Translations under genes and position numbers: made by a program
The notes under the pieces: model-generated
Seen by the model: the letters and a program-made list of their open reading frames with translations, nothing else
Databases searched by the model: none
What the model was told of the DNA's origin: nothing
Source of the DNA: Janthinobacterium lividum
Lineage (GTDB): Bacteria > Bacteroidota > Bacteroidia > Cytophagales > Hymenobacteraceae
Length of the DNA stretch: 64,000 bases
Direction: 5' to 3'
NCBI GenBank assembly: GCA_050954845.1
Contig: JBPBQK010000039.1
Span: 37,783 to 101,782 of the forward strand
Shown here: one piece after another, positions 7,380 to 43,497 of the stretch
Position numbering within the stretch: the first letter of the stretch is position 1
Layout of the letters: each line of letters begins with the position of its first letter

Positions 7380-8381
7380 TTAGAACGTTTGCTGAAACAA
7401 ACCCTTGGCTTTGCCAGCCGTGGAAGTGAAATTCAAGGCAATGGTTTGCACGGTACCTGGGTCGAGGGGCTCGTCAAAAGCTTCCGATACCGCCGCTGCC
7501 GTATACGCACTGTTGAGGGTCGAGAAGGTTACGCCGGCCTGCGTAGCGTTGCTCTCAGCGGGGTAATTGGCGGCGGGGTTGCCCGCATTGTACACGGCCG
7601 CGGCTGGCTTAGAGTTGTTGGGAGCAGTGGGGCCCCCGTTGTCTATCAGGTTAATCCAGCTTTTGGGGGCGGCCGGGGCCGAATCGTAAGGCGCTACTGC
7701 CGGGGCCAATGCCGAGCCCAGCGTGTTGGCTACGATGGCGCGGCGCACGCTGCGGAAGTGCGAGTTGTGGCGCGCTTCTACCGAGTGGATGTTGAGGGCA
7801 GCCTCCAAAATATCTTTGGTACCCGTGGTATTCAGGGTAGGCGCGCCGCCTTTATATGCCCGCTGGCCAACATCAGAAAATGCCTGGCCCGCCGCGAAGA
7901 AGAGGGCACCATTAGCATTGCCCGTGCCATTGGGCACTAGGGCAGTAGCCATGGGGCCAGTGCCGGTGCCGCCGCCGCCCGAGTAGTCAAAATCCGTAAC
8001 TAAATAGGAGGGAGCAGCCGAACCCAATACAGTACGCAATGCACTGATGTGGCCAGCCTCGTCGTTGCGGATGGTCGTGATGCCGTTGGTTTCCGAAGAC
8101 GGAATCAGCCCCGTTATGCCGAGCGCGGTGTTGTAGAAGTGAAACTCCAGGTATTCCAGCTGCAGAGCCAGCGTGAGCACCTTCTGCACATCGGCGGGCA
8201 GCGTGGTGGATTGGCCGTAGGCGCGGTTGAAAAACGAAGCCAGAATGACTGGCACGGCCGCAGCAGTTACTTTCTGGCCGGCATTGCCGAGGTACTTAAA
8301 TACGCGACGGCGGGGGTTGATACGGTCCAGAAACTCCGGGTCGGCCTGCTCCAGGTCGGAAATCAGCTTGAAAAGATTCAT
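7380..8381 (-). CDS. ferritin-like domain protein, copy A2
   Basis: LEYLE, DEAGH, FSDVG, VEARH; paralogue of 4930..5949. Confidence 0.88.
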   Translation of the reverse strand: MNLFKLISDLEQADPEFLDRINPRRRVFKYLGNAGQKVTAAAVPVILASFFNRAYGQSTTLPADVQKVLTLALQLEYLEFHFYNTALGITGLIPSSETNGITTIRNDEAGHISALRTVLGSAAPSYLVTDFDYSGGGGTGTGPMATALVPNGTGNANGALFFAAGQAFSDVGQRAYKGGAPTLNTTGTKDILEAALNIHSVEARHNSHFRSVRRAIVANTLGSALAPAVAPYDSAPAAPKSWINLIDNGGPTAPNNSKPAAAVYNAGNPAANYPAESNATQAGVTFSTLNSAYTAAAVSEAFDEPLDPGTVQTIALNFTSTAGKAKGLFQQTF

Positions 8382-8425
8382 GATACTAGCAATACAATAA
8401 GGATGGAGGAAAAGAGCAGGCAGGC

Positions 8426-9241
8426 CTAGGTGAAGCTGGTAGCCGAAAGCTTGGAGCCGTCGGCCAGGAAGTTGTTGACGGAGCTAAGCACGTCCTGCGG
8501 CTTGCGCGAGCGCTCGCCGCCAGCTACTGGGTTGCCATTGCCGGGGGTGAGGCTGGGGGTGCCAGCGCCCGTGTAAGCTGTGGTAGTGTTGGCGGGCAGA
8601 GTAGGCGAGAAGGTATTCACTACATCGCTGGCTACAAAGCTGTTGTAGGTAAGGATATCGCGAATGAGCGCCGCGTGGCGGGCTTCTACCGATACGATTT
8701 TACCAGCTAAGCCGAGGTAGGTATTATTGGTGATGTAGCGGCCTGCGCCGTTATAAGCGGCCACGCCCGTATCCTCAAACGTGCGAGCGGCTTGCAGCAC
8801 CTGGGTCCGGTCGTTGAAATTGATGCTCGAAAAATTCGGCGTTAAATCCTTGAGGAGCGTAGCACCCGCCGTAGCCGAAATGGCCGCCTTAAAGAAATCG
8901 CGGTGAATGGCTTCGTGCAACGCGAGGTCGTCGAAAATCTGTTTTTCGGCGTTGGAGGCACCCGAGTAGTACGTGCCGGTTTTTACCTGCGCGTAGAACG
9001 CGGCTTCGAGCTGCTCCAGCGCGTAGGCGTAGTTCAGGATACCGACATCGCCTGAGCCGACATCCGTTACGGCGGGGTTGTTATTGCTTTCGTTGCTGTC
9101 GCAGCCGGCCAGCACGAGGGCTGTGGCCCCGGCCGTAGCGCCGGCATACATAAAGAATGAGCGGCGCTTGATGGGCGTATACAGTGGTTGGTCGGGGCCA
9201 GCCTCGTGCAAGTGTGGGCCGGCAGGAATATTTTGGGACAT
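8426..9241 (-). CDS. ferritin-like domain lipoprotein with twin-arginine signal, copy A1
   Basis: KRRSFF, LAGC, LEQLE, HEAIH, FEDTG, VEARH; paralogue of 5997..6734. Confidence 0.88.
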   Translation of the reverse strand: MSQNIPAGPHLHEAGPDQPLYTPIKRRSFFMYAGATAGATALVLAGCDSNESNNNPAVTDVGSGDVGILNYAYALEQLEAAFYAQVKTGTYYSGASNAEKQIFDDLALHEAIHRDFFKAAISATAGATLLKDLTPNFSSINFNDRTQVLQAARTFEDTGVAAYNGAGRYITNNTYLGLAGKIVSVEARHAALIRDILTYNSFVASDVVNTFSPTLPANTTTAYTGAGTPSLTPGNGNPVAGGERSRKPQDVLSSVNNFLADGSKLSATSFT

Positions 9242-31898: not shown

Positions 31899-32250
31899 AA
31901 ATAGTAGCAGATAAAAGGTAAGATGGCTAGGCAGCCAATAACTCAGTTTCGGATTCTGATACAATTTTAGCGGAGTCACTCAGCCCTCAAAAGGACAAAC
32001 CTGCGTTTTTTACGACATTGTATATTTTTGATATTTATGGGTCTAAAGCCCTAAAAAACCGTGTATAATTGAAAATTATAAACTGAACATTAGAAAAATA
32101 TTTGCTTTATATTATTGATTTTTAATAATTTAACTAAAAGACTGCGATTGAGCTTACCCTGGTTTTTTGTCAGAAAAGTGCATAAATAGGACATTGAAGC
32201 CCCTTCAAAGCAGGCCTTTTTACCTCGGTTTTTCTATAAAAAAGAGAGGA

Positions 32251-33246
32251 TTAGCGCGTTGCAAACGCGCGCGCCAGCCGCTGCAAGGCGAGCAGCGTAA
32301 GCAGCAAGGCCCCGCCCGCGCTGGCCAGCAGCCACCAGGCACCGGGCTCTTGGCGCAGCATACCGAGCAAGCGGCCCCAACTCGAAACATCGGGTGGCCG
32401 CCCAACCCCCAGAAAAGCCAGCGTGCTTTCGAGCCCAATAAGCCCGGCCAGACTGAGTGGCACGGTAGCTTGCAGGGGCCGGCAGGCGTGGGGCAGGGCG
32501 TGGCGCAGCCACACCCTGCCAGTGGACAGGCCCAGCGCGCGCGCCGCCTCCACAAAGGGTAACTCGCGTACTTGCTGCATCTGAGCCCGCACCTGCCGGG
32601 CGGGCTCGGGCCAGGCTACTACTACTAGCAGCACCAGCAGTTGCCCCGTGGCCAGGGGCGGCCCGGCGGCCAGCACAAGCACCAGTACCAGCCGGGGCAC
32701 GGCCCCAAGCAGGGTAATTGCCGTTTGGAAAAGGCTATCGAGCGGCAGCGGCCAAGTGGCGTGGCCCACCCAGCGCACCCGTGGCGCAACCCACCAAGCC
32801 AGCATGGCCGCCCCCAGCAACAAGCCCGCCACCGTGCGGCCACCGGGCAGGGCCACCAGCCACCACCCCACCGCTAGCCCCAGCAGCCACGCGCCCAGCG
32901 GCAGCCGCCAGCCCCGGTCGCCCCAAAAGCCAGCACTACCACCAGCCAGCGCCCCCACCAGCGCCGCCAGCAGGGCCGCCGGCAAACTTAGGATGGCCAC
33001 TTGGCGCGCCCCAAATAGTACCTCCGTCAGGACATCGCAGCCGAGCGGGTCGGTGCCCAGCCAGTGCCGGGGCGCGGCCCCCCAACTTGGTGGCTCGGCC
33101 ACGTGCAGCAGGTCGGGCACGCCGGGGGCGAAGGGCAGCGGTAGCCACGGCGCCAGCAGTCCCACGCCGCTCACTAGCACCAGCCAGCCAATGGCCAGCC
33201 AGGTAAGCCTCGAAAAGGCAACGTATGGAAACCGGCCTAAACGCAT
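32251..33246 (-). CDS. peptide/nickel ABC permease (DppC/OppC type)
   Basis: HWLGTDPLG.D and FVEAARALG (EAA loop). ATG 33246 overlaps the upstream permease stop. Confidence 0.88.
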   Translation of the reverse strand: MRLGRFPYVAFSRLTWLAIGWLVLVSGVGLLAPWLPLPFAPGVPDLLHVAEPPSWGAAPRHWLGTDPLGCDVLTEVLFGARQVAILSLPAALLAALVGALAGGSAGFWGDRGWRLPLGAWLLGLAVGWWLVALPGGRTVAGLLLGAAMLAWWVAPRVRWVGHATWPLPLDSLFQTAITLLGAVPRLVLVLVLAAGPPLATGQLLVLLVVVAWPEPARQVRAQMQQVRELPFVEAARALGLSTGRVWLRHALPHACRPLQATVPLSLAGLIGLESTLAFLGVGRPPDVSSWGRLLGMLRQEPGAWWLLASAGGALLLTLLALQRLARAFATR

Positions 33247-34304
33247 GAGGCAAGGCGAATGCGCGGGTCGACCAACGCTTGCAGGGCATCGGCCAGCGCC
33301 AAGCACAGCAGCCGCACCACCGCCGTGAACAGCACCCCAGCCACTACGACCGGGTAGTCGTGGGCGGCCGCCGACTCGGCTAGCAGGCGGCCCACGCCCG
33401 GGATGGCAAAAACCGTTTCTACCAGCACCGTGCCGGCCAGCAAAGTCGGCAGCAAGCCCGCGAAAGAGGTGAGCAGCGGCAGCAAGGCATTGGGCAGGGC
33501 GTGGCGGCGTAGCAGCGTAGCAGTGGGCACGCCCTTAGCGCGGGCCGTAGTGGCGTAGTCGGCTTGCAGCTCGCGGCGCAGCGCGGCGGCCAGCGGCAAA
33601 GTCAGCTCGGGCAAAACCGCCAGTACCAGCGTTAGCAGCGGCATAAGAAGCTGCAAGGCAAAGGCCCCCGGTGCCAGGTCGGCCGAGCCACTGCCCAGCG
33701 AATAGGCGGGTAACAGATTGAGCGCGTCGGGGTTAGCGAAAACAAAAAGTAGCCCCAGTGCCAAGGCAAATACCGGTATGCTCTGCAAGCTGGTAAGTAG
33801 CACCTGCAAGCCCGCTCGCCACCCCGTGGAGCCAGCTAGTGGGCCGCTCGCCAAGGCCAGCCCCAGCGCTAGTGCCCCCAGCCCGGCTACCACGGCGGCG
33901 GCGCCCGCCAGCGGCAGCGTATAGGCCAGGGCCGCGCGCAGCCGGGGGCCAATAGGCTGGCCATCGCGGTAAGACGCGCCCAACTGGCCGTGCAGCAGCC
34001 CCACTACCCAGTGGTGGTACTGATTATGTGTGCCGTGCCAACGCCAGGTAGCCGAGTCGCGGCTGGTGCGGGTGAGGTAAAAAACTGGCTCCGTAAGCCC
34101 CAAGCGCTGGCGCAGGGCCTGGCGGGCAGCTAGCTGGTCGGCTTGGCCAATGCTGCTGGCGTGCGCCCGCAAGTCATCGCTTTCCCCCAGCATAACTTCT
34201 TCGGCCCCCGCCACCAGTACCCGGCTCAGAATAAATACCAAGGAGGCCGTGGCCCAGGCGGCCAAGCCAGCCCGTCCTATTTGCAGCAGTAGCCAACGCC
34301 TCAT
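33237..34304 (-). CDS. peptide/nickel ABC permease (DppB/OppB type)
   Basis: LGASYRDG, YATTARAKG, RHALPNAL, VETVFAIPGVG, DYPVV. Confidence 0.9.
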   Translation of the reverse strand: MRRWLLLQIGRAGLAAWATASLVFILSRVLVAGAEEVMLGESDDLRAHASSIGQADQLAARQALRQRLGLTEPVFYLTRTSRDSATWRWHGTHNQYHHWVVGLLHGQLGASYRDGQPIGPRLRAALAYTLPLAGAAAVVAGLGALALGLALASGPLAGSTGWRAGLQVLLTSLQSIPVFALALGLLFVFANPDALNLLPAYSLGSGSADLAPGAFALQLLMPLLTLVLAVLPELTLPLAAALRRELQADYATTARAKGVPTATLLRRHALPNALLPLLTSFAGLLPTLLAGTVLVETVFAIPGVGRLLAESAAAHDYPVVVAGVLFTAVVRLLCLALADALQALVDPRIRLASCV

Positions 34305-34316
34305 ATCCCAGCAGGT

Positions 34317-36068
34317 TTAGCGAGCCAGGGCATCTGTTGTGGCGGCCCAGGTAGCAGCGGCGGCATAATAGCCTGGCTTATAGCCCGAGGGGTATAAATT
34401 CTGGAGGCCCCGGGCCGTAGTCAGGCGGTAGGGCAGAAAGAACAGTGGCATCAGTGGCATCTGCTGCTGCATTATCAGCTGGAAGCGCCGGAGCAGCCTG
34501 CGCTTGCGCGCCGGGTTTCCAGTTGCCGCAATAGCGTCGATGAGCTGGTCGGTAGCGCGAGTGCTAAATTTCGTGAAGTTGCTCTCCGGAATGGTGCGCG
34601 AATGCAGCAACGTCGTGAAGTTGAAGGCAAATGGGTTGCCGCTCAGCTTGCGTACATAGATGTCAAAGTCACCCTCGCGGAGGGTAGTAGTCAGGAGCGA
34701 AGGCTCGGTAGGCCGCAGCTCGACCGGGATGCCTAACTTGGTAGCAGCGCTTTTAAACTGAAGCGCAATGGTAGCAAACGTAGGTTCGTCGGTGCGGTAG
34801 CGAACTGTAAGGGACAGTTTCTCAATTGGCTGCGCTTTGGTGGCTGCGCTGCGCACCCAGCCCGTAGCCTGGCGCTGCCAGCCCGCTCGTTGCAGTAGCG
34901 CCAGTGCTTGTGCGGGAGCATAAGCGGGGAGGGGCAGGCTGTCATTATAATACAAGTGGTCGTTCGGGTGCACCAGCCCCACCGTGCGTAGCCCCTGGCC
35001 AAGCTGCGTGGCTTTCAGTAGATTAACTGGGTCAAACAGCAAGGCCAGTGCTTGCCGGGTCAGCGAATCGTGCAGGGCGGGCTGGCGGGTATTGAAGCCC
35101 GCCGTTACCAGCTCGTAAGAAGTAGTAGCGTAAAACGCCAACTCTTGCTGCGCCCCAGTAGCGGTCTGTAGGCGCTGAAACCCACGGGCCGACATCTGCG
35201 GTAGTACATCCAGCTCGTGGCGGCGCAGGGCCAGGGTCGCAGTTGCCTCGTCTGGAATGATGAGAAACTGAATCTGGGGCACCTGGGCTTGCAGCATAAA
35301 GGGCGTGGGCCGCAGCGCATTGGCCCACCAGTGGGGCTTGCGCACAAAGGTCAGGAAATGGTCTATCTCCCAGGTCTTCAGGCGGTAGGCCCCGCAGCCC
35401 GGCAGCCGCTCGGGGTGGTGGCTGGGGTCGGCGTGTTGGTAGCGCTGCACCAAGGCCTGCAGGGCAGTATCACGCTTGGTCAGCAGCGAAAGCTTAGTTA
35501 GCTTGGCCAGCGAGCAGTGGCGTAGCGTGCACTGGGGGTCAAGGGCAGCTTCGGGCAAAATAGGGAACTCGCCGGCCTCGTAGCTGTACTCGGGCGCTTG
35601 CCCCTGGCAAACCAGCGTAAACCGCCGTGGGTTGCCAGCATCCAGCCGGATGGCACGAATGAAGCTGAGCTGCGCCCGCACTTTTTCATTGGGCAGGCCG
35701 GGGCATTGATACAGCTTGAGCGTGAAGGCTACATCGCTGGCCAGCACCGGGCGGCCATTATCCCAGGTAGCAGCCCGGCGCAACTCGTAGCGTAGCTCGG
35801 TAAGCGAATCGCCTACCAAGCGTACGTTAGGCAACGAGTCGGCCAGGGCTGGGGAATAAGTACCCGTCAAAAAATTTACTTGCAGCAAGCTGCAATGCAA
35901 TAAACTCAGGGCATCTATTGCATTTTGGTTGGGCTGTACCAAGGGCGATAGGTTTTCGGGGTCGCGGACCCACCGAACCCGAATGCCGGTATGCTGCTGT
36001 TGCTTAGCTGGTAGCGAGCATGACCCGCTAACAATGGCCAGCAAGAGACCAACCCAAAATTGCTTCAT
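34317..36068 (-). CDS. family-5 (Opp/Dpp/Nik) substrate-binding lipoprotein
   Basis: Lipobox SGSC; 'TWDNGRPVLASDVAFTLK'; 'GCGAYRL..W'; 'VRQALA'-like segment; 583 aa. Confidence 0.9.
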   Translation of the reverse strand: MKQFWVGLLLAIVSGSCSLPAKQQQHTGIRVRWVRDPENLSPLVQPNQNAIDALSLLHCSLLQVNFLTGTYSPALADSLPNVRLVGDSLTELRYELRRAATWDNGRPVLASDVAFTLKLYQCPGLPNEKVRAQLSFIRAIRLDAGNPRRFTLVCQGQAPEYSYEAGEFPILPEAALDPQCTLRHCSLAKLTKLSLLTKRDTALQALVQRYQHADPSHHPERLPGCGAYRLKTWEIDHFLTFVRKPHWWANALRPTPFMLQAQVPQIQFLIIPDEATATLALRRHELDVLPQMSARGFQRLQTATGAQQELAFYATTSYELVTAGFNTRQPALHDSLTRQALALLFDPVNLLKATQLGQGLRTVGLVHPNDHLYYNDSLPLPAYAPAQALALLQRAGWQRQATGWVRSAATKAQPIEKLSLTVRYRTDEPTFATIALQFKSAATKLGIPVELRPTEPSLLTTTLREGDFDIYVRKLSGNPFAFNFTTLLHSRTIPESNFTKFSTRATDQLIDAIAATGNPARKRRLLRRFQLIMQQQMPLMPLFFLPYRLTTARGLQNLYPSGYKPGYYAAAATWAATTDALAR

Positions 36069-36127: not shown

Positions 36128-36379
36128 TTAGTCGTGGTCCCAGCCGCTGCCGCCGATGGTCGGGTCCGGGGCTGGCGAGCCAGTTGCGTCGTGGTCCCAG
36201 CCGCTGCCGCCGATGGTGGTAGAAGTGCCGGTTACGTCGTGGTCCCAGCCGCTACCACCGATGGCTTGCGTCGTGGTGGGGCCAGTTACATCATGGTCCC
36301 AGCCACTACCACCAATGTTGGTAGAAGTACCAGTGAGGGTAGCAAACTGCAGTAGGGCAAGTACAAGTAGGTCAAACAT
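36128..36379 (-). CDS. 83-aa secreted precursor with four IGGSGWDHD cores
   Basis: ATG 36379; hydrophobic leader MFDLLVLALLQFATLTG; four exact 9-aa repeats, the last at the C-terminus. Confidence 0.85.
   Translation of the reverse strand: MFDLLVLALLQFATLTGTSTNIGGSGWDHDVTGPTTTQAIGGSGWDHDVTGTSTTIGGSGWDHDATGSPAPDPTIGGSGWDHD
36131..36316 (-). repeat. four in-frame 27-bp coding repeats
   Basis: Units at 36131-36157, 36188-36214, 36236-36262 and 36290-36316; spacers 30, 21 and 27 nt; differences are synonymous only. Confidence 0.95.
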
Positions 36380-36443
36380 GGTAATTGAGGTGAGGGGGTA
36401 GATGATTAACTGATACAAAAGTCCTCACTTACTTAAGCCCAAC

Positions 36444-36472
36444 AAAGGACAATGTTTGTGAAAATAGGACAA
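36444..36472. promoter_or_regulatory. candidate operator: direct repeat A(A/T)AGGACAA with 20-bp period
   Basis: aaaggacaa at 36444 and ataggacaa at 36464, in the divergent intergenic region. Confidence 0.4.
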
Positions 36473-36744
36473 CGATTTTTATTGTATTATTTATAATTTT
36501 TACAAGCAAAAAGCAAGTTTTACTGCTTCTGCTGCGTAAAAATAGAATTTCCCGTGATGATTTTTTGCAAGAAAAAGTGGAAATTGTGACATCTCTTCGA
36601 TAAAAAAGCTCGCTCGTCCACTTTGCAAAGGTTTCAACTAAGCAGCTCGTAAAAAAAGGACAAAGTGGTTATTTTTTTATGTGCTAATTTTAGCACTTAT
36701 TCTAGTCCCAAAACCGCTATTTGGCCTGCTAGGGCGTTTTCTCT

Positions 36745-38253
36745 ATGAAAGAAATTGCAAATTTGGCCCGAATTGTGACATTACGCCGCCTCAAAAATGA
36801 GCCCTTGCTCGATTTGGATACGCGGCAGCCGGGAAAGGAAGCGCAGCTGGCCGCAATCTTAGCAGCCGATGCGCATATTACTGGCCCTCAGGCAGCTAAG
36901 CAAGTTTATGGCAAAAGCTCGGAGGCCAGCCAAACGGCCTTTTTGCGCCTGCGGGCCCGAGTGCAGGAAAAGCTGCTAAACCATCTTTTTTTTCTCGACC
37001 ATACCGATGCGCGCTTGTTTGTAGCGCGTCGCTATGAACTTGAATGTCTGGATTTGCTGCACAAGGTAACAATTTTATACTTAGAAGGCGAATATGCGCT
37101 GAGCGAGCGCCTGCTGCGGCGCTGCTTGCGCCAGGCCGAAAAGGGCGAGTTTACGAAATACGCTGAGCAGGCGTGCCAGCGCTTGAGTACCCTGTATGCC
37201 GAGCAGCGCCAGCAGCACAAATACAACACTTACAGTAAGAAGCTGGCCAAGCTGCGCCAAGTGCTTATTTATGAGCAGGAGGCGGAGCAAATGGCGACCC
37301 AGGTGCGCCTGACGATGACCCGGACGGTGACCATCCGGCGGACGCTGCTGCCCAAGATGCCCGGCTACATTGCCAAGGCCGAGCAGCTGCACCAGAAGGC
37401 GGGTAGCTTCACTACCTACGTATCGCTCTACCGCTTGCGCCTGATACAGGCAGAGTTAACCGGCCATTACGACGAGATTATTCGCTATACCACGGCGGCT
37501 ACGCAGCTGCTGCGCCAGGGCAAGCTCAATGAGCGGCGCTTCGACCAGCGCTTCAACCAGTTTATGAGCATGTATGCGCACTTGCGCAGCCGGCAATACA
37601 AGGCCGGCCTCAAGCTGGCCGAAGATTTTGCGGCCGATTTGCATCCTACTTCCAACAACTGGTTTTACTTCTACGAGCACTATTTGCTGCTGGCCCTGCA
37701 CGCCGGCGAATACGACCACGCCCTGCGCCTGCTGCACGTGGCGCACAAAAACCCGTCGTTTCCGAAGCAGCGGCCCGCCGCCCAAGAGCGCTGGCAACTG
37801 CTGCAAGCCTACGTAGAGTTTGTGCAGCCCGAGGAAACGCTGCCCCAGCGCCGCCGCATTCAGATGGCCACTGCCGCGCTGCTAGTGGTGCCCGAGTTCA
37901 CGCGCGACAAGCGGGGCTACAACGTGGCTATTCTGGTGTTTCAGCTGCTGCACTACCTGCGCCAGCGCGAGCTAGAGCCGGTGCTCACGCGCCTCGAGCG
38001 CCTGCGCAAGTACCAGCAGCGGCACCTACGCGACGCGGCCACCCTGCGCAGCCGCACGCTGCTGCGCCTGCTTATGCTGCTGCCCGAAGCCGAGTTTGAC
38101 CCCGAGGTGCTGGCCAAACGGGGCCAAACCCGCCTGGCGCAGCTAAGCCAGGCCCCTATGGTGGGCGATGCCGACGCCGAGGTCGAAATCATTCCCTACG
38201 AGCGGATTTGGGAGCTGACCCTTAGTATTTTGCGCGCTGGTACTCCACAATAG
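36745..38253 (+). CDS. soluble all-helical protein; putative N-terminal HTH plus TPR-like repeats (candidate peptide-responsive regulator)
   Basis: No signal peptide or TM segment; helix-turn-helix-like 'GPQAAKQVYG...AFLRLRARVQEKLL'; TPR-like units such as 'YLEGEYALSERLLRRCL' and 'LHAGEYDHALRLL'. Confidence 0.75.
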   Translation: MKEIANLARIVTLRRLKNEPLLDLDTRQPGKEAQLAAILAADAHITGPQAAKQVYGKSSEASQTAFLRLRARVQEKLLNHLFFLDHTDARLFVARRYELECLDLLHKVTILYLEGEYALSERLLRRCLRQAEKGEFTKYAEQACQRLSTLYAEQRQQHKYNTYSKKLAKLRQVLIYEQEAEQMATQVRLTMTRTVTIRRTLLPKMPGYIAKAEQLHQKAGSFTTYVSLYRLRLIQAELTGHYDEIIRYTTAATQLLRQGKLNERRFDQRFNQFMSMYAHLRSRQYKAGLKLAEDFAADLHPTSNNWFYFYEHYLLLALHAGEYDHALRLLHVAHKNPSFPKQRPAAQERWQLLQAYVEFVQPEETLPQRRRIQMATAALLVVPEFTRDKRGYNVAILVFQLLHYLRQRELEPVLTRLERLRKYQQRHLRDAATLRSRTLLRLLMLLPEAEFDPEVLAKRGQTRLAQLSQAPMVGDADAEVEIIPYERIWELTLSILRAGTPQ

Positions 38254-38274: not shown

Positions 38275-38874
38275 CTACTGCACCACTACCACCTCCTGGG
38301 TGGCGCAGTGGCTGGCGGCGCAGCTGCCGGGGCCGTAGCCGCGCAAACTTAGGCGCACCTGATAGCGGCCAGCCTTGCGAAAGGTGTGGTCGATGCGGCG
38401 GCCCTGCTGGGTGAGGCCATCGCGAAAGTCCCAGATATAGAGCACGTTCTGGCAAGTGGGCAAGCCCGAGTCCAGGGCGTCGAAGGCTATCGCTTCGCCA
38501 ACGTGGATGGTTTTGGCGGGCAGGCTGAAGTAGATAACGGGCTGCGTAACGAGGTCTACTTCAAAGGTTTTTTCGGCCTTGCGCACCTCGCCGGTGGCGG
38601 GCACCAGCACATCGAGCACTACCTGGTAGCGGGCGCGGCGCTTGTAGCAGTGGCTGATAATGAGTCCGGTGAGAGTAGTGCTGTCGCCCATTTGCCAGCG
38701 GTATACCACGGGGCCCGCGGCCGGGTCCACAGAGCGGCTGGCATCAAAATCTACGCACATCTGGGGTAGGATTGGGGGCCCGCAGTCGGCGGCATCCTGG
38801 GCGTGGGCCGCTTGCGAGGCCAGCCCACCACCCGCCCAAACCGACAAAACCAACAAAGCGCGTAATAAACTCAT
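38275..38874 (-). CDS. secreted PKD-domain protein (two PKD-like repeats)
   Basis: 'FDASRS...YRWQMGD' and 'FDALDS...YIWDFRDG...HTF.KAGRYQVRL'. Confidence 0.85.
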   Translation of the reverse strand: MSLLRALLVLSVWAGGGLASQAAHAQDAADCGPPILPQMCVDFDASRSVDPAAGPVVYRWQMGDSTTLTGLIISHCYKRRARYQVVLDVLVPATGEVRKAEKTFEVDLVTQPVIYFSLPAKTIHVGEAIAFDALDSGLPTCQNVLYIWDFRDGLTQQGRRIDHTFRKAGRYQVRLSLRGYGPGSCAASHCATQEVVVVQ

Positions 38875-38965: not shown

Positions 38966-39748
38966 CTACAAGCGGTTGAGCCGCTGCAAAACGTTGCGCA
39001 GGTACGTCTGGCCCACTGGTATATATTTATCCTTGATTAGTAAAGAGTTGTCTTCCAGCGCCTGCACGCAATTGATGTTGGCAATGAAGGAGCGGTGCAC
39101 GCGCACAAACTGCGTGGGCGGAAATTTCTCCTCGATAGCCCGCATGGTGCTGTACACAATGAGCTTGCTTTGGCTGGTGACGATGTGCACGTAATCGCCG
39201 AGGGCCTCGACGTACTGCACCTCGCGAAAATCGACTCGCACCAGCTTGGTATCCATCTTCACAAATGTGAAATCGGGCTCGACGGCCGGGGTTACTAAGC
39301 CCGCAGTATCGCTTTCGGCGGCCCGTTCGGCTGTGATTATATCCAGAACTTTTTGGGCCGCCTGCAAAAAGCGCGGATAGGACAAAGGCTTGAGCAGGTA
39401 ATCGGCCACGGCAAACTCGAAGGCCTGCACTGCATAATTGTCGCTGCTGGTAATAAGCACGACTTGGGGTAGGTCAATTTGCATTCGCAGCAGGTCGATG
39501 CCCGACATCATGGGCATCTCGACATCCAGAAAAAGTACGTCGATAGGCTGGGCGTGAGTACGCAGTAGCTCAGCGGCTTCTAGCGCGTTGGTGAAGGAAC
39601 CGACTGCTTGCAAAAAGGGCGTATTGGCAATGCAGTTCAGAACAATTTGCACCGAAAGCGGGTCGTCGTCAACGACCAGACAACGGAGTGGAGCGGTAGC
39701 AGTAGCGGGCTCAGACGAAGAGGTAGGCATAGCAACAGTTGATTTCAT
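38966..39748 (-). CDS. LytTR-family response regulator
   Basis: VVDDD, FLDVEMP, DYLLKP receiver motifs; FVRVHRSFI LytTR motif. Confidence 0.95.
   Translation of the reverse strand: MKSTVAMPTSSSEPATATAPLRCLVVDDDPLSVQIVLNCIANTPFLQAVGSFTNALEAAELLRTHAQPIDVLFLDVEMPMMSGIDLLRMQIDLPQVVLITSSDNYAVQAFEFAVADYLLKPLSYPRFLQAAQKVLDIITAERAAESDTAGLVTPAVEPDFTFVKMDTKLVRVDFREVQYVEALGDYVHIVTSQSKLIVYSTMRAIEEKFPPTQFVRVHRSFIANINCVQALEDNSLLIKDKYIPVGQTYLRNVLQRLNRL

Positions 39749-39876: not shown

Positions 39877-43497
<3,621 letters not shown>

Follow-up and report, generated by a model that had tools for sequence, protein, structure and literature searches.

What is the function of a soluble, entirely helical protein of 502 residues that stands head-to-head with a small gene for a repetitive peptide? 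The question is raised by a 64,000-nucleotide stretch of DNA (hereafter the window) filed under Janthinobacterium lividum in the NCBI assembly GCA_050954845.1 (contig JBPBQK010000039.1, positions 37,783 to 101,782 of the forward strand) and placed by its GTDB lineage in the Hymenobacteraceae, a family of Bacteroidota. The genome that carries it is Hymenobacter-like, the nearest relatives of the protein being Hymenobacter proteins of 52-92% identity, all about 500 residues long. An original prediction, made from the letters of the window, had proposed for the protein the roles of peptide receptor and transcription factor, with an N-terminal helix-turn-helix (HTH) and a C-terminal superhelix of tetratricopeptide repeat (TPR) type. 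The analysis reported here, in silico throughout, leads us to regard the protein as a cytoplasmic receptor, one half of a peptide signalling cassette with logic like that of the RRNPP systems, a reading to which we give a probability of roughly 0.45. The proposal of a peptide receptor gains strong, if indirect, comparative support from the pairing with a peptide gene, the synteny with an importer and the TPR-like C-terminal part, and from these we infer the binding of a peptide; the proposal of a transcription factor fares less well, as discussed below.

The basic properties first ascribed to the gene product, an unannotated helical protein with no signal peptide and no transmembrane segment, were all confirmed. 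The Kyte-Doolittle mean over 19 residues peaks at 0.92, the AlphaFold2 model is helical from end to end, and searches of Pfam, NCBIfam and PDB sequences with the protein returned nothing above threshold, the matches to PHP and BtuB being noise. Present once in its own genome, the gene encodes a protein of three parts, an N-terminal four-helix domain, a linker and a TPR-like solenoid. In an alignment of 25 full-length family members the residues conserved family-wide are limited to Y55, R72, W306, N393, L420, Y423, R435 and E481, and the invariant set of His, Cys, Asp or Ser expected of an enzyme is absent; because these are the sole conserved residues, an enzymatic role was rejected.

The most telling feature of the gene is the company it keeps. 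The family was found in 144 of the 151 Hymenobacteraceae genomes sampled, in six of eight genera and mostly in single copy, and in the 20-kb surroundings of the gene, compared for synteny in 20 genomes of six genera, it stands in every case head-to-head with a peptide gene, an SBP_bac_5 gene and two BPD_transp_1 permease genes. The distance from ATG to ATG is nearly constant (of the 20 regions aligned, 16 have 343-383 bp and four have 268-289 bp), and in each of the 20 loci the intergenic space contains a small open reading frame (ORF) on the strand of the transporter genes. Its product begins with a hydrophobic leader of consensus M-[FLIV]-[ED]-L-[LF]-x-x-A-L-L-Q-[LIF]-x-T-L-x-G, continues through a spacer rich in Thr, Ser and Pro, and ends in a Gly-rich, Trp-containing acidic core (GGxGxW-acidic), such as GGTGSWDDNN, GGTGTWDNKD or IGTSGWDDRN. 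The cores are repeated in Hymenobacter, with four in the window, where the final IGGSGWDHD abuts the stop codon, and from two to many more in other species. When GTG starts and long repetitive ORFs are counted, a precursor is also present in at least 25 of 29 further Hymenobacter loci viewed with 1.5-kb flanks. Across the three closest genomes the 12 copies of the core encode one and the same peptide, all differences between them being synonymous, and the spacers vary in both length and sequence, a pattern that points to purifying selection on the cores while the spacers drift. No precursor matched NCBIfam or Pfam, including families of precursors of ribosomally synthesized and post-translationally modified peptides (RiPPs), and neither the precursors nor the 502-residue protein belongs to any curated family. 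Judged by this pairing, the TPR protein and the peptide fit the description of obligate partners.

Core copy number evolves quickly between Hymenobacter species. A 282-residue open frame of one species (L008:3271-4116, + strand; the L numbers are our handles for loci) consists mostly of VGGSGWGNDIAAN units as tandem cores, and expanded tandem-core precursors, several of them of 160-220 residues, occur likewise in L012, L019, L020 and L022. One genus has instead three tandem single-core precursor genes (L048:8114-8777, - strand), each ending in ...GGTGSWDDNN, an alternative to the multi-core gene as a route to higher peptide dosage.

The genes that follow the peptide gene encode a solute-binding lipoprotein and permeases of the Opp/Dpp/Nik class. 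The binding protein resembles NikA, YejA, MppA, DppA and OppA only weakly, far below the equivalog cut-offs, and with so distant a resemblance to named members its substrate may be a peptide, nickel or a metallophore. No ATPase gene adjoins the permease genes of the window; another contig (G000:C111:about 120300-122200, loci L067/L068) carries a 630-residue open frame for a fused double ATPase of OppD/OppF type with two oligo_HPY domains, which probably energises the importer in trans. A further TTTGTCCTTTTG-type element, followed by a -7-like box and facing an ORF of 67 aa, lies a short way downstream from the permease genes, at about position 31998 of the window (within 31990-32200).

How far the association extends can be judged from more distant relatives. 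A profile search of 1.84 billion representative sequences gave 2317 clusters at E <= 1e-3, and almost all of the best 150 of these are about 500 residues long; in a sample of 401 genomes from across the phylum, 20 genomes of five families hold the gene, in one to three copies each. All 20 also have SBP_bac_5, as against 250 of the 401 overall, a co-occurrence that carries little weight because the domain is so common in the phylum. Around 16 distant loci, whose proteins are about 16-26% identical to that of the window, no transporter is a neighbour (0/16) and no modifying enzyme, protease or exporter recurs, just as no recurrent enzyme is found at the window, and the larger neighbours are mixed: cytidylate kinase, MutS, acyl-CoA dehydrogenase, transposases and TPR-adenylate cyclases. 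Leader-type peptide genes nevertheless adjoin the gene in at least eight of the 16 (L051, L053-L057, L065 and L066), upstream and divergent in seven, with leaders such as MMALLIALLIQLGIIASP, MDLITALLIFFGMMSPD and MELFIAILIYFGMVTPN; L058 has two further candidate ORFs (8389-8532 and 7740-7853, both on the - strand) that both end in IITDDGAGRNDSE. The C-terminal cores at distant loci are acidic but unrelated to those of Hymenobacteraceae (for example ...QIDRRED and ...TIDRTED), and some are again repeated: IVTDPNGKN four times in L057:18450-18626 (+), NIVVEDIITRG nine times in L066:8702-9109 (+), and IIDRGEEN three times in L065:7917-8060 (-). Because distant loci that have no adjacent transporter still keep adjacent leader-type peptide genes, the core two-gene module, judging by gene neighbourhood, is the peptide gene plus the TPR gene, and the importer in the peptide operon is a lineage-specific addition in Hymenobacteraceae. 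The same observation bears on the most prosaic explanation, that the protein is an ordinary housekeeping TPR scaffold which merely happens to lie beside a peptide gene. The near-universal and mostly single-copy presence of the gene in Hymenobacteraceae, like that of a core gene, would suit such a scaffold, but a pairing with leader-type peptides that persists between lineages of only 20-28% identity, with otherwise unrelated neighbourhoods, makes it very improbable.

Several features of the distant loci stand apart from this argument. The multi-core design seems to have arisen several times within the module of peptide and TPR protein. Tandem paralogs of the 500-residue gene occur at L046:10760-12238, L047:10788-12281, L060:8492-11859 and L061:7301-11034, and one genus often has two to four copies per genome. 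In one lineage (L053:4818-8609, + strand, and its counterpart in L054) a homolog is followed by two paralogs that have canonical TPR repeats and, in addition, an adenylate/guanylate cyclase domain, with three leader-type peptide genes upstream, an arrangement that may link peptide sensing to cyclic nucleotides.

If the peptide is the partner, what kind of protein receives it? The AlphaFold2 model, built with 35 homologs, has a mean pLDDT of 83.4 and a pTM of 0.74; a low-confidence linker spans residues 81-92, and after residue 94 some 18 helices pair as a solenoid. The motifs conserved family-wide in this part are NW (W306), SKDKxGxNVxILI (N393), RxExLxxYxxRYL (L420, Y423), R435 and EIIPYExLW (E481), and in the window its net charge is +17, set against the acidic cores of the peptide. 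Foldseek searches of the PDB with the whole model gave TPR solenoids as all of the top matches (best E 2.5e-3, TM 0.2-0.5), the family profile, made from 25 diverse sequences, matched designed consensus TPR proteins (E 1.4e-4, residues 261-334), and single members matched TPR_12 and TPR_2 weakly. The protein is thus a TPR-like alpha-solenoid protein, and the superhelix of the original prediction is upheld as a fold class only, because the matches by structure and by profile alike are to generic TPRs: the family profile found designed TPRs alone among PDB sequences, the RapH-Spo0F complex came sixth in the Foldseek ranking (E 1.3e-2) as one generic TPR match among 981, and a viral structure library yielded generic TPR and SNAP proteins and nothing like AimR. 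Domain III of MalT ranked 25th against the whole model, and regulators of the MalT/LAL type, like other TPR regulators, share with the protein the combination of a TPR sensor and a small helical output domain; here, however, there is no NTPase module and no HTH of GerE type, and the output domain would be N-terminal.

The N-terminal domain is where a transcription factor should reveal itself. Its last helix, the best conserved part of the N-terminal half, is basic (...AFLRLRARVQEKLLNHLFFLD) and falls within the motif LYG..D.RYR.LKSRL..KLLN.L.FLD. In an alignment of 33 N-terminal domains of about 20% identity neither Y55 nor R72 varies, and both are conserved to 90% or more among the 25 full-length sequences; the mean net charge of the domain across the family is +5.3, a few distant members being acidic. 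Modelled alone, residues 1-92 reach a pLDDT of 74.5, and Foldseek found no significant neighbour for this model (best E 2.3). A winged HTH of AsnC type aligned over 48 columns at 2.4 Å, but with E 7, and WhiA gave a TM score of 0.45-0.47 with E of about 7. Comparison by hhalign of the alignment of the domain with alignments of GerE, sigma70_r4_2 and XRE HTHs, built from proteins of this genome, gave probabilities below 1% for each, the profile of the domain matched no PDB sequence at E up to 10, and Pfam produced only sub-threshold matches among the 33 domains, to NNH6 in five (best E 0.001) and to HTH_24 in two (E 0.033). A search for short stand-alone relatives of the domain returned only fragments of full-length members, and an HTH_3 protein elsewhere in the genome (L110, a 502-codon open frame, 493 residues from its ATG) was set aside, as it reads unlike a TPR protein. 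Of the HTH placed at residues 45-80 or so, what survives is the helices (31-41, 47-55 and 60-81), with the last one basic and conserved; their identity as an HTH, at most a divergent one, finds no support in Foldseek, hhalign, profile or Pfam comparisons. A transcription factor with an N-terminal HTH is to that extent unproven, and membership of the PlcR/NprR/Rgg group is reduced to a resemblance in layout and logic, with no homology detected. The structural comparison that had been proposed as a check recovered the TPR solenoid and, as to the rest, recognised neither a DNA-binding domain nor anything specific to Rap, PlcR, NprR, Rgg or AimR. We consequently grade DNA binding by this domain as possible rather than demonstrated, since no fold or profile match to an HTH was obtained, though the domain is usually basic.

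The space between the two divergent genes adds evidence of another kind. An alignment of 20 orthologous intergenic regions shows conserved blocks, and 18 of them have AAAGGA-N16-GT[GA]AC in a fixed place, at 52-77 nt from the start codon of the peptide gene (mean of shuffles, 0.02); in the window its second half-site reads AGGAC. In several regions a second copy, never inverted, follows at a distance of about 210 bp. The window copies of the AGGACA-containing repeat read A(A/T)AGGACAA at 36441, 36461 and 36652, the first two forming a direct repeat with a 20-bp period. The strict motif has no other occurrence in this genome, and a looser form, TGTCCT-N13-15-TGTCCT, occurs in only two other places, where the downstream ORFs are uninformative. 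Read on the peptide strand, the first conserved copy becomes GTYAC-N16-TCCTTT(T)G-N19-nAnnTTTG, in the window TCCTTTG-N19-GACTTTTG, and the TCCTTTG-N19 element resembles a Bacteroidetes -33/-7 promoter before the peptide gene, with an additional conserved element upstream of it. There are two such promoter-like composites (GTYAC-N16-TCCTTT, then nAnnTTTG), about 210 bp apart and both oriented to the peptide gene; transcription from the distal one would produce either a leader of about 200 nt ahead of that gene or a small RNA of its own there. The conserved divergent arrangement, the conserved intergenic motif and the basic N-terminal domain are together compatible with DNA binding by the 502-residue protein.

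They are not the only way to read this region. A Rap-like receptor would bind the peptide through its TPR part without itself binding DNA, its N-terminal bundle acting instead on a LytTR response regulator or a kinase, and the LytTR regulator, not the TPR protein, would bind the intergenic direct repeats; we judge both halves of this proposal unlikely. The architecture, a small N-terminal helical bundle, a flexible linker and a TPR domain, is that of the Rap proteins of the Rap-Phr systems of Bacillus, no HTH was recognised, and RapH-Spo0F is among the top structural matches, weak as these are. Direct repeats with a period of about 20 bp, as in the window, are the usual layout of LytTR sites. 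Suitable partners are also at hand, for convergent with the 502-residue gene lie genes for a PKD-domain protein, a LytTR regulator and a hybrid histidine kinase, the latter two syntenic in six of eight Hymenobacter loci (L031-L038) and the PKD gene in five of the eight, and a LytS-type kinase and a LytTR regulator adjoin distant homologs in L052, L055 and L056, three loci of two further lineages (L052 and L055/L056). With Hymenobacter this makes three lineages, a recurrence that, since this genome has only 16 LytTR genes, is notable, though not universal. Of the six Hymenobacteraceae genera, however, five yielded no such neighbours, nor did most distant loci, the divergent arrangement of regulator and target is kept family-wide, and no homology to Rap was detected. 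The PKD, LytTR and kinase genes may be linked to the module but lie outside its core. Phr peptides, like the one proposed here, are ligands imported by Opp, and action on a response regulator offers a possible parallel given the LytTR neighbours; phr genes lie downstream of and co-directional with their rap genes, unlike the divergent peptide gene here. The output of the receptor that we favour may be either DNA binding or Rap-like action on the LytTR regulator. The features discussed are collected in Table 1.

Table 1. Features of the locus, in window coordinates.
Feature	Position	Strand	Basis and remarks
502-aa soluble helical protein gene	36745..38253	+	ATG-started ORF and translation; pI 9.7
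N-terminal domain, residues 1-92	36745..37020	+	AlphaFold2 helices 2-13, 31-41, 47-55, 60-81/87; candidate output (DNA- or protein-binding) domain
TPR-like alpha-solenoid, residues ~94-502	37024..38250	+	AlphaFold2, Foldseek, family profile; candidate peptide-binding part
Divergent 365-bp control region	36380..36744	.	Between peptide gene and 502-aa gene
Three AAAGGACAA-type copies	36441-36457, 36461-36477, 36652-36668		Repeat search
83-aa peptide precursor	36128..36379	-	Translation; hydrophobic leader MFDLLVLALLQFATLTG, four IGGSGWDHD cores, Thr/Pro-rich spacers
SBP_bac_5 solute-binding lipoprotein, Opp/Dpp/Nik class	34317..36068	-	Pfam E 1.8e-44; first transporter gene after peptide gene
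BPD_transp_1 permeases (OppB/C- or NikB/C-like)	33237-34304, 32251-33306	-	Pfam and synteny
PKD-domain protein	38275-38874	-	Pfam; convergent with 502-aa gene
LytTR response regulator	38966-39748	-	Pfam; convergent neighbour
Hybrid histidine kinase	39877-43497	-	Pfam; convergent neighbour

Taken as a signalling cassette, the locus would work as follows. The hydrophobic leader would take the precursor out of the cytoplasm, where proteolysis would free the repeated nine-residue IGGSGWDHD cores; the Opp/Nik-type binding protein and permeases, with the ATPase encoded elsewhere, would return the peptide to the cell; the basic TPR-like solenoid would bind it; and binding would alter what the small basic N-terminal domain does, most probably its control of the conserved promoter region of the peptide and importer genes, closing an autoinduction loop. 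Export, processing, import, peptide binding and DNA binding are all steps that we infer, and several observations lead us to favour the receptor reading. Acidic cores face a TPR protein that is soluble, basic and not an enzyme; within the precursor the cores lie at the C-terminus, and they are under purifying selection; and in Hymenobacteraceae, almost all of whose sampled genomes have the system, a dedicated importer shares an operon with the peptide. A divergent arrangement with a control region is characteristic of DNA-binding RRNPP members such as Rgg/SHP, and the conserved control region between divergent genes here is a further reason. Finally, pheromones duplicated in tandem within one propeptide, as the cores are here, have been documented for Rap-Phr (PMC11343458).

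Against this must be set a number of points. None of the fold or profile methods recognised a DNA-binding domain in the 502-residue protein, and PDB sequence search, family profile and Foldseek found no homology to the RRNPP receptors Rap, NprR, PlcR, Rgg, PrgX and AimR. NikA, a nickel/metallophore binder, is among the named proteins nearest to the binding protein. A basic n-region, as in Sec signal peptides, is missing from the leader, in which position 3 is Asp or Glu, and there is no Peptidase_C39 in this genome, which is 96% complete, so that a double-glycine leader with a C39 exporter was rejected and export of the precursor is left unexplained. The very many cores of some precursors fit a bulk secreted product as well as a pheromone, and conservation of the leader across very distant lineages suggests recognition by a dedicated partner more than a generic signal peptide.

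It is from several of these points that the third alternative draws its strength, namely that the protein is a biogenesis, chaperone or targeting factor for a secreted repeat peptide, metallophore-like or antimicrobial, whose leader it binds in the cytoplasm, and that the solute-binding protein and permeases recapture the product or its metal complex. Conservation of the leader while the cores differ, the high copy numbers of the cores and the non-Sec-like character of the leader would all be understandable on such grounds, as would a binding protein whose best named match is of NikA type beside a window core that contains both His and Asp. The likeness to known multi-core ribosomal precursors (fungal ustiloxin-type peptides, plant lyciumins, cyanobactins), in which one leader serves many identical cores, is evident, as is that to methanobactin operons, in which a dedicated SBP_bac_5 uptake protein (MbnE) is encoded beside the precursor gene. 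Yet those systems differ in that here no modification enzymes lie in or near the locus and the conserved partner is a non-enzymatic TPR protein. A biogenesis factor is, in addition, hard to reconcile with the lack of any recurrent modifying enzyme, protease or exporter nearby, with the want of enzyme-like invariant residues in the 502-residue protein, with the absence of His from the cores of most other species and with modules that, outside Hymenobacteraceae, have no adjacent transporter. On balance we hold this alternative, too, to be improbable, and retain the peptide receptor as the preferred reading.

How does the proposed cassette compare with the RRNPP(A) systems, especially those with divergent genes such as Rgg/SHP and PrgX-type ones? 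Both have a two-gene core of a small propeptide gene and a cytoplasmic TPR-type protein, divergent genes that share a control region, and tandem copies in some propeptides (for pheromones, PMC11343458); in the proposed cassette, as in those systems, the active part of the propeptide would lie at its C-terminus and an Opp-type importer would take it up. They differ in the host, here a Gram-negative member of Bacteroidota, in the lack of sequence or specific structural homology and of an HTH of XRE type, in an importer encoded within the peptide operon, in a leader that is acidic and hydrophobic rather than Sec-like, and in far higher numbers of cores, some species having many of them in tandem. 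RRNPP receptors are also smaller than the receptor of about 500 residues proposed here. A little more tentatively than the receptor role itself, and at somewhat less than even odds, we suggest that these features reflect an independently evolved and widespread, RRNPP-like form of intracellular peptide sensing native to Gram-negative Bacteroidota, with receptors non-homologous to those of Bacillota, propeptides that have a conserved leader and often several clade-specific cores, and, in Hymenobacteraceae, a dedicated importer in the peptide operon.

For Gram-negative bacteria, the general view is that signalling relies on small molecules instead of peptides. Signalling by imported peptides through cytoplasmic TPR receptors is confined, in the literature that we found, to Bacillota and their phages and plasmids: the papers on RRNPP systems that we consulted deal with Firmicutes/Bacillota only (PMC10075063, PMC11343458), the large survey of them being confined to Firmicutes genomes (PMC10075063), and our literature searches found no report of RRNPP-type systems in Bacteroidota. 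Should the receptor reading prove true, the logic of peptide and TPR receptor would extend to a major environmental phylum, with a dedicated importer; some 2,300 protein clusters of unknown function would gain a testable role, and predicted ligand-receptor pairs would stand ready for experiments. Even if that reading fails, the module defines a new family of multi-core ribosomal peptides whose leader is conserved and whose obligatory partner is not an enzyme.

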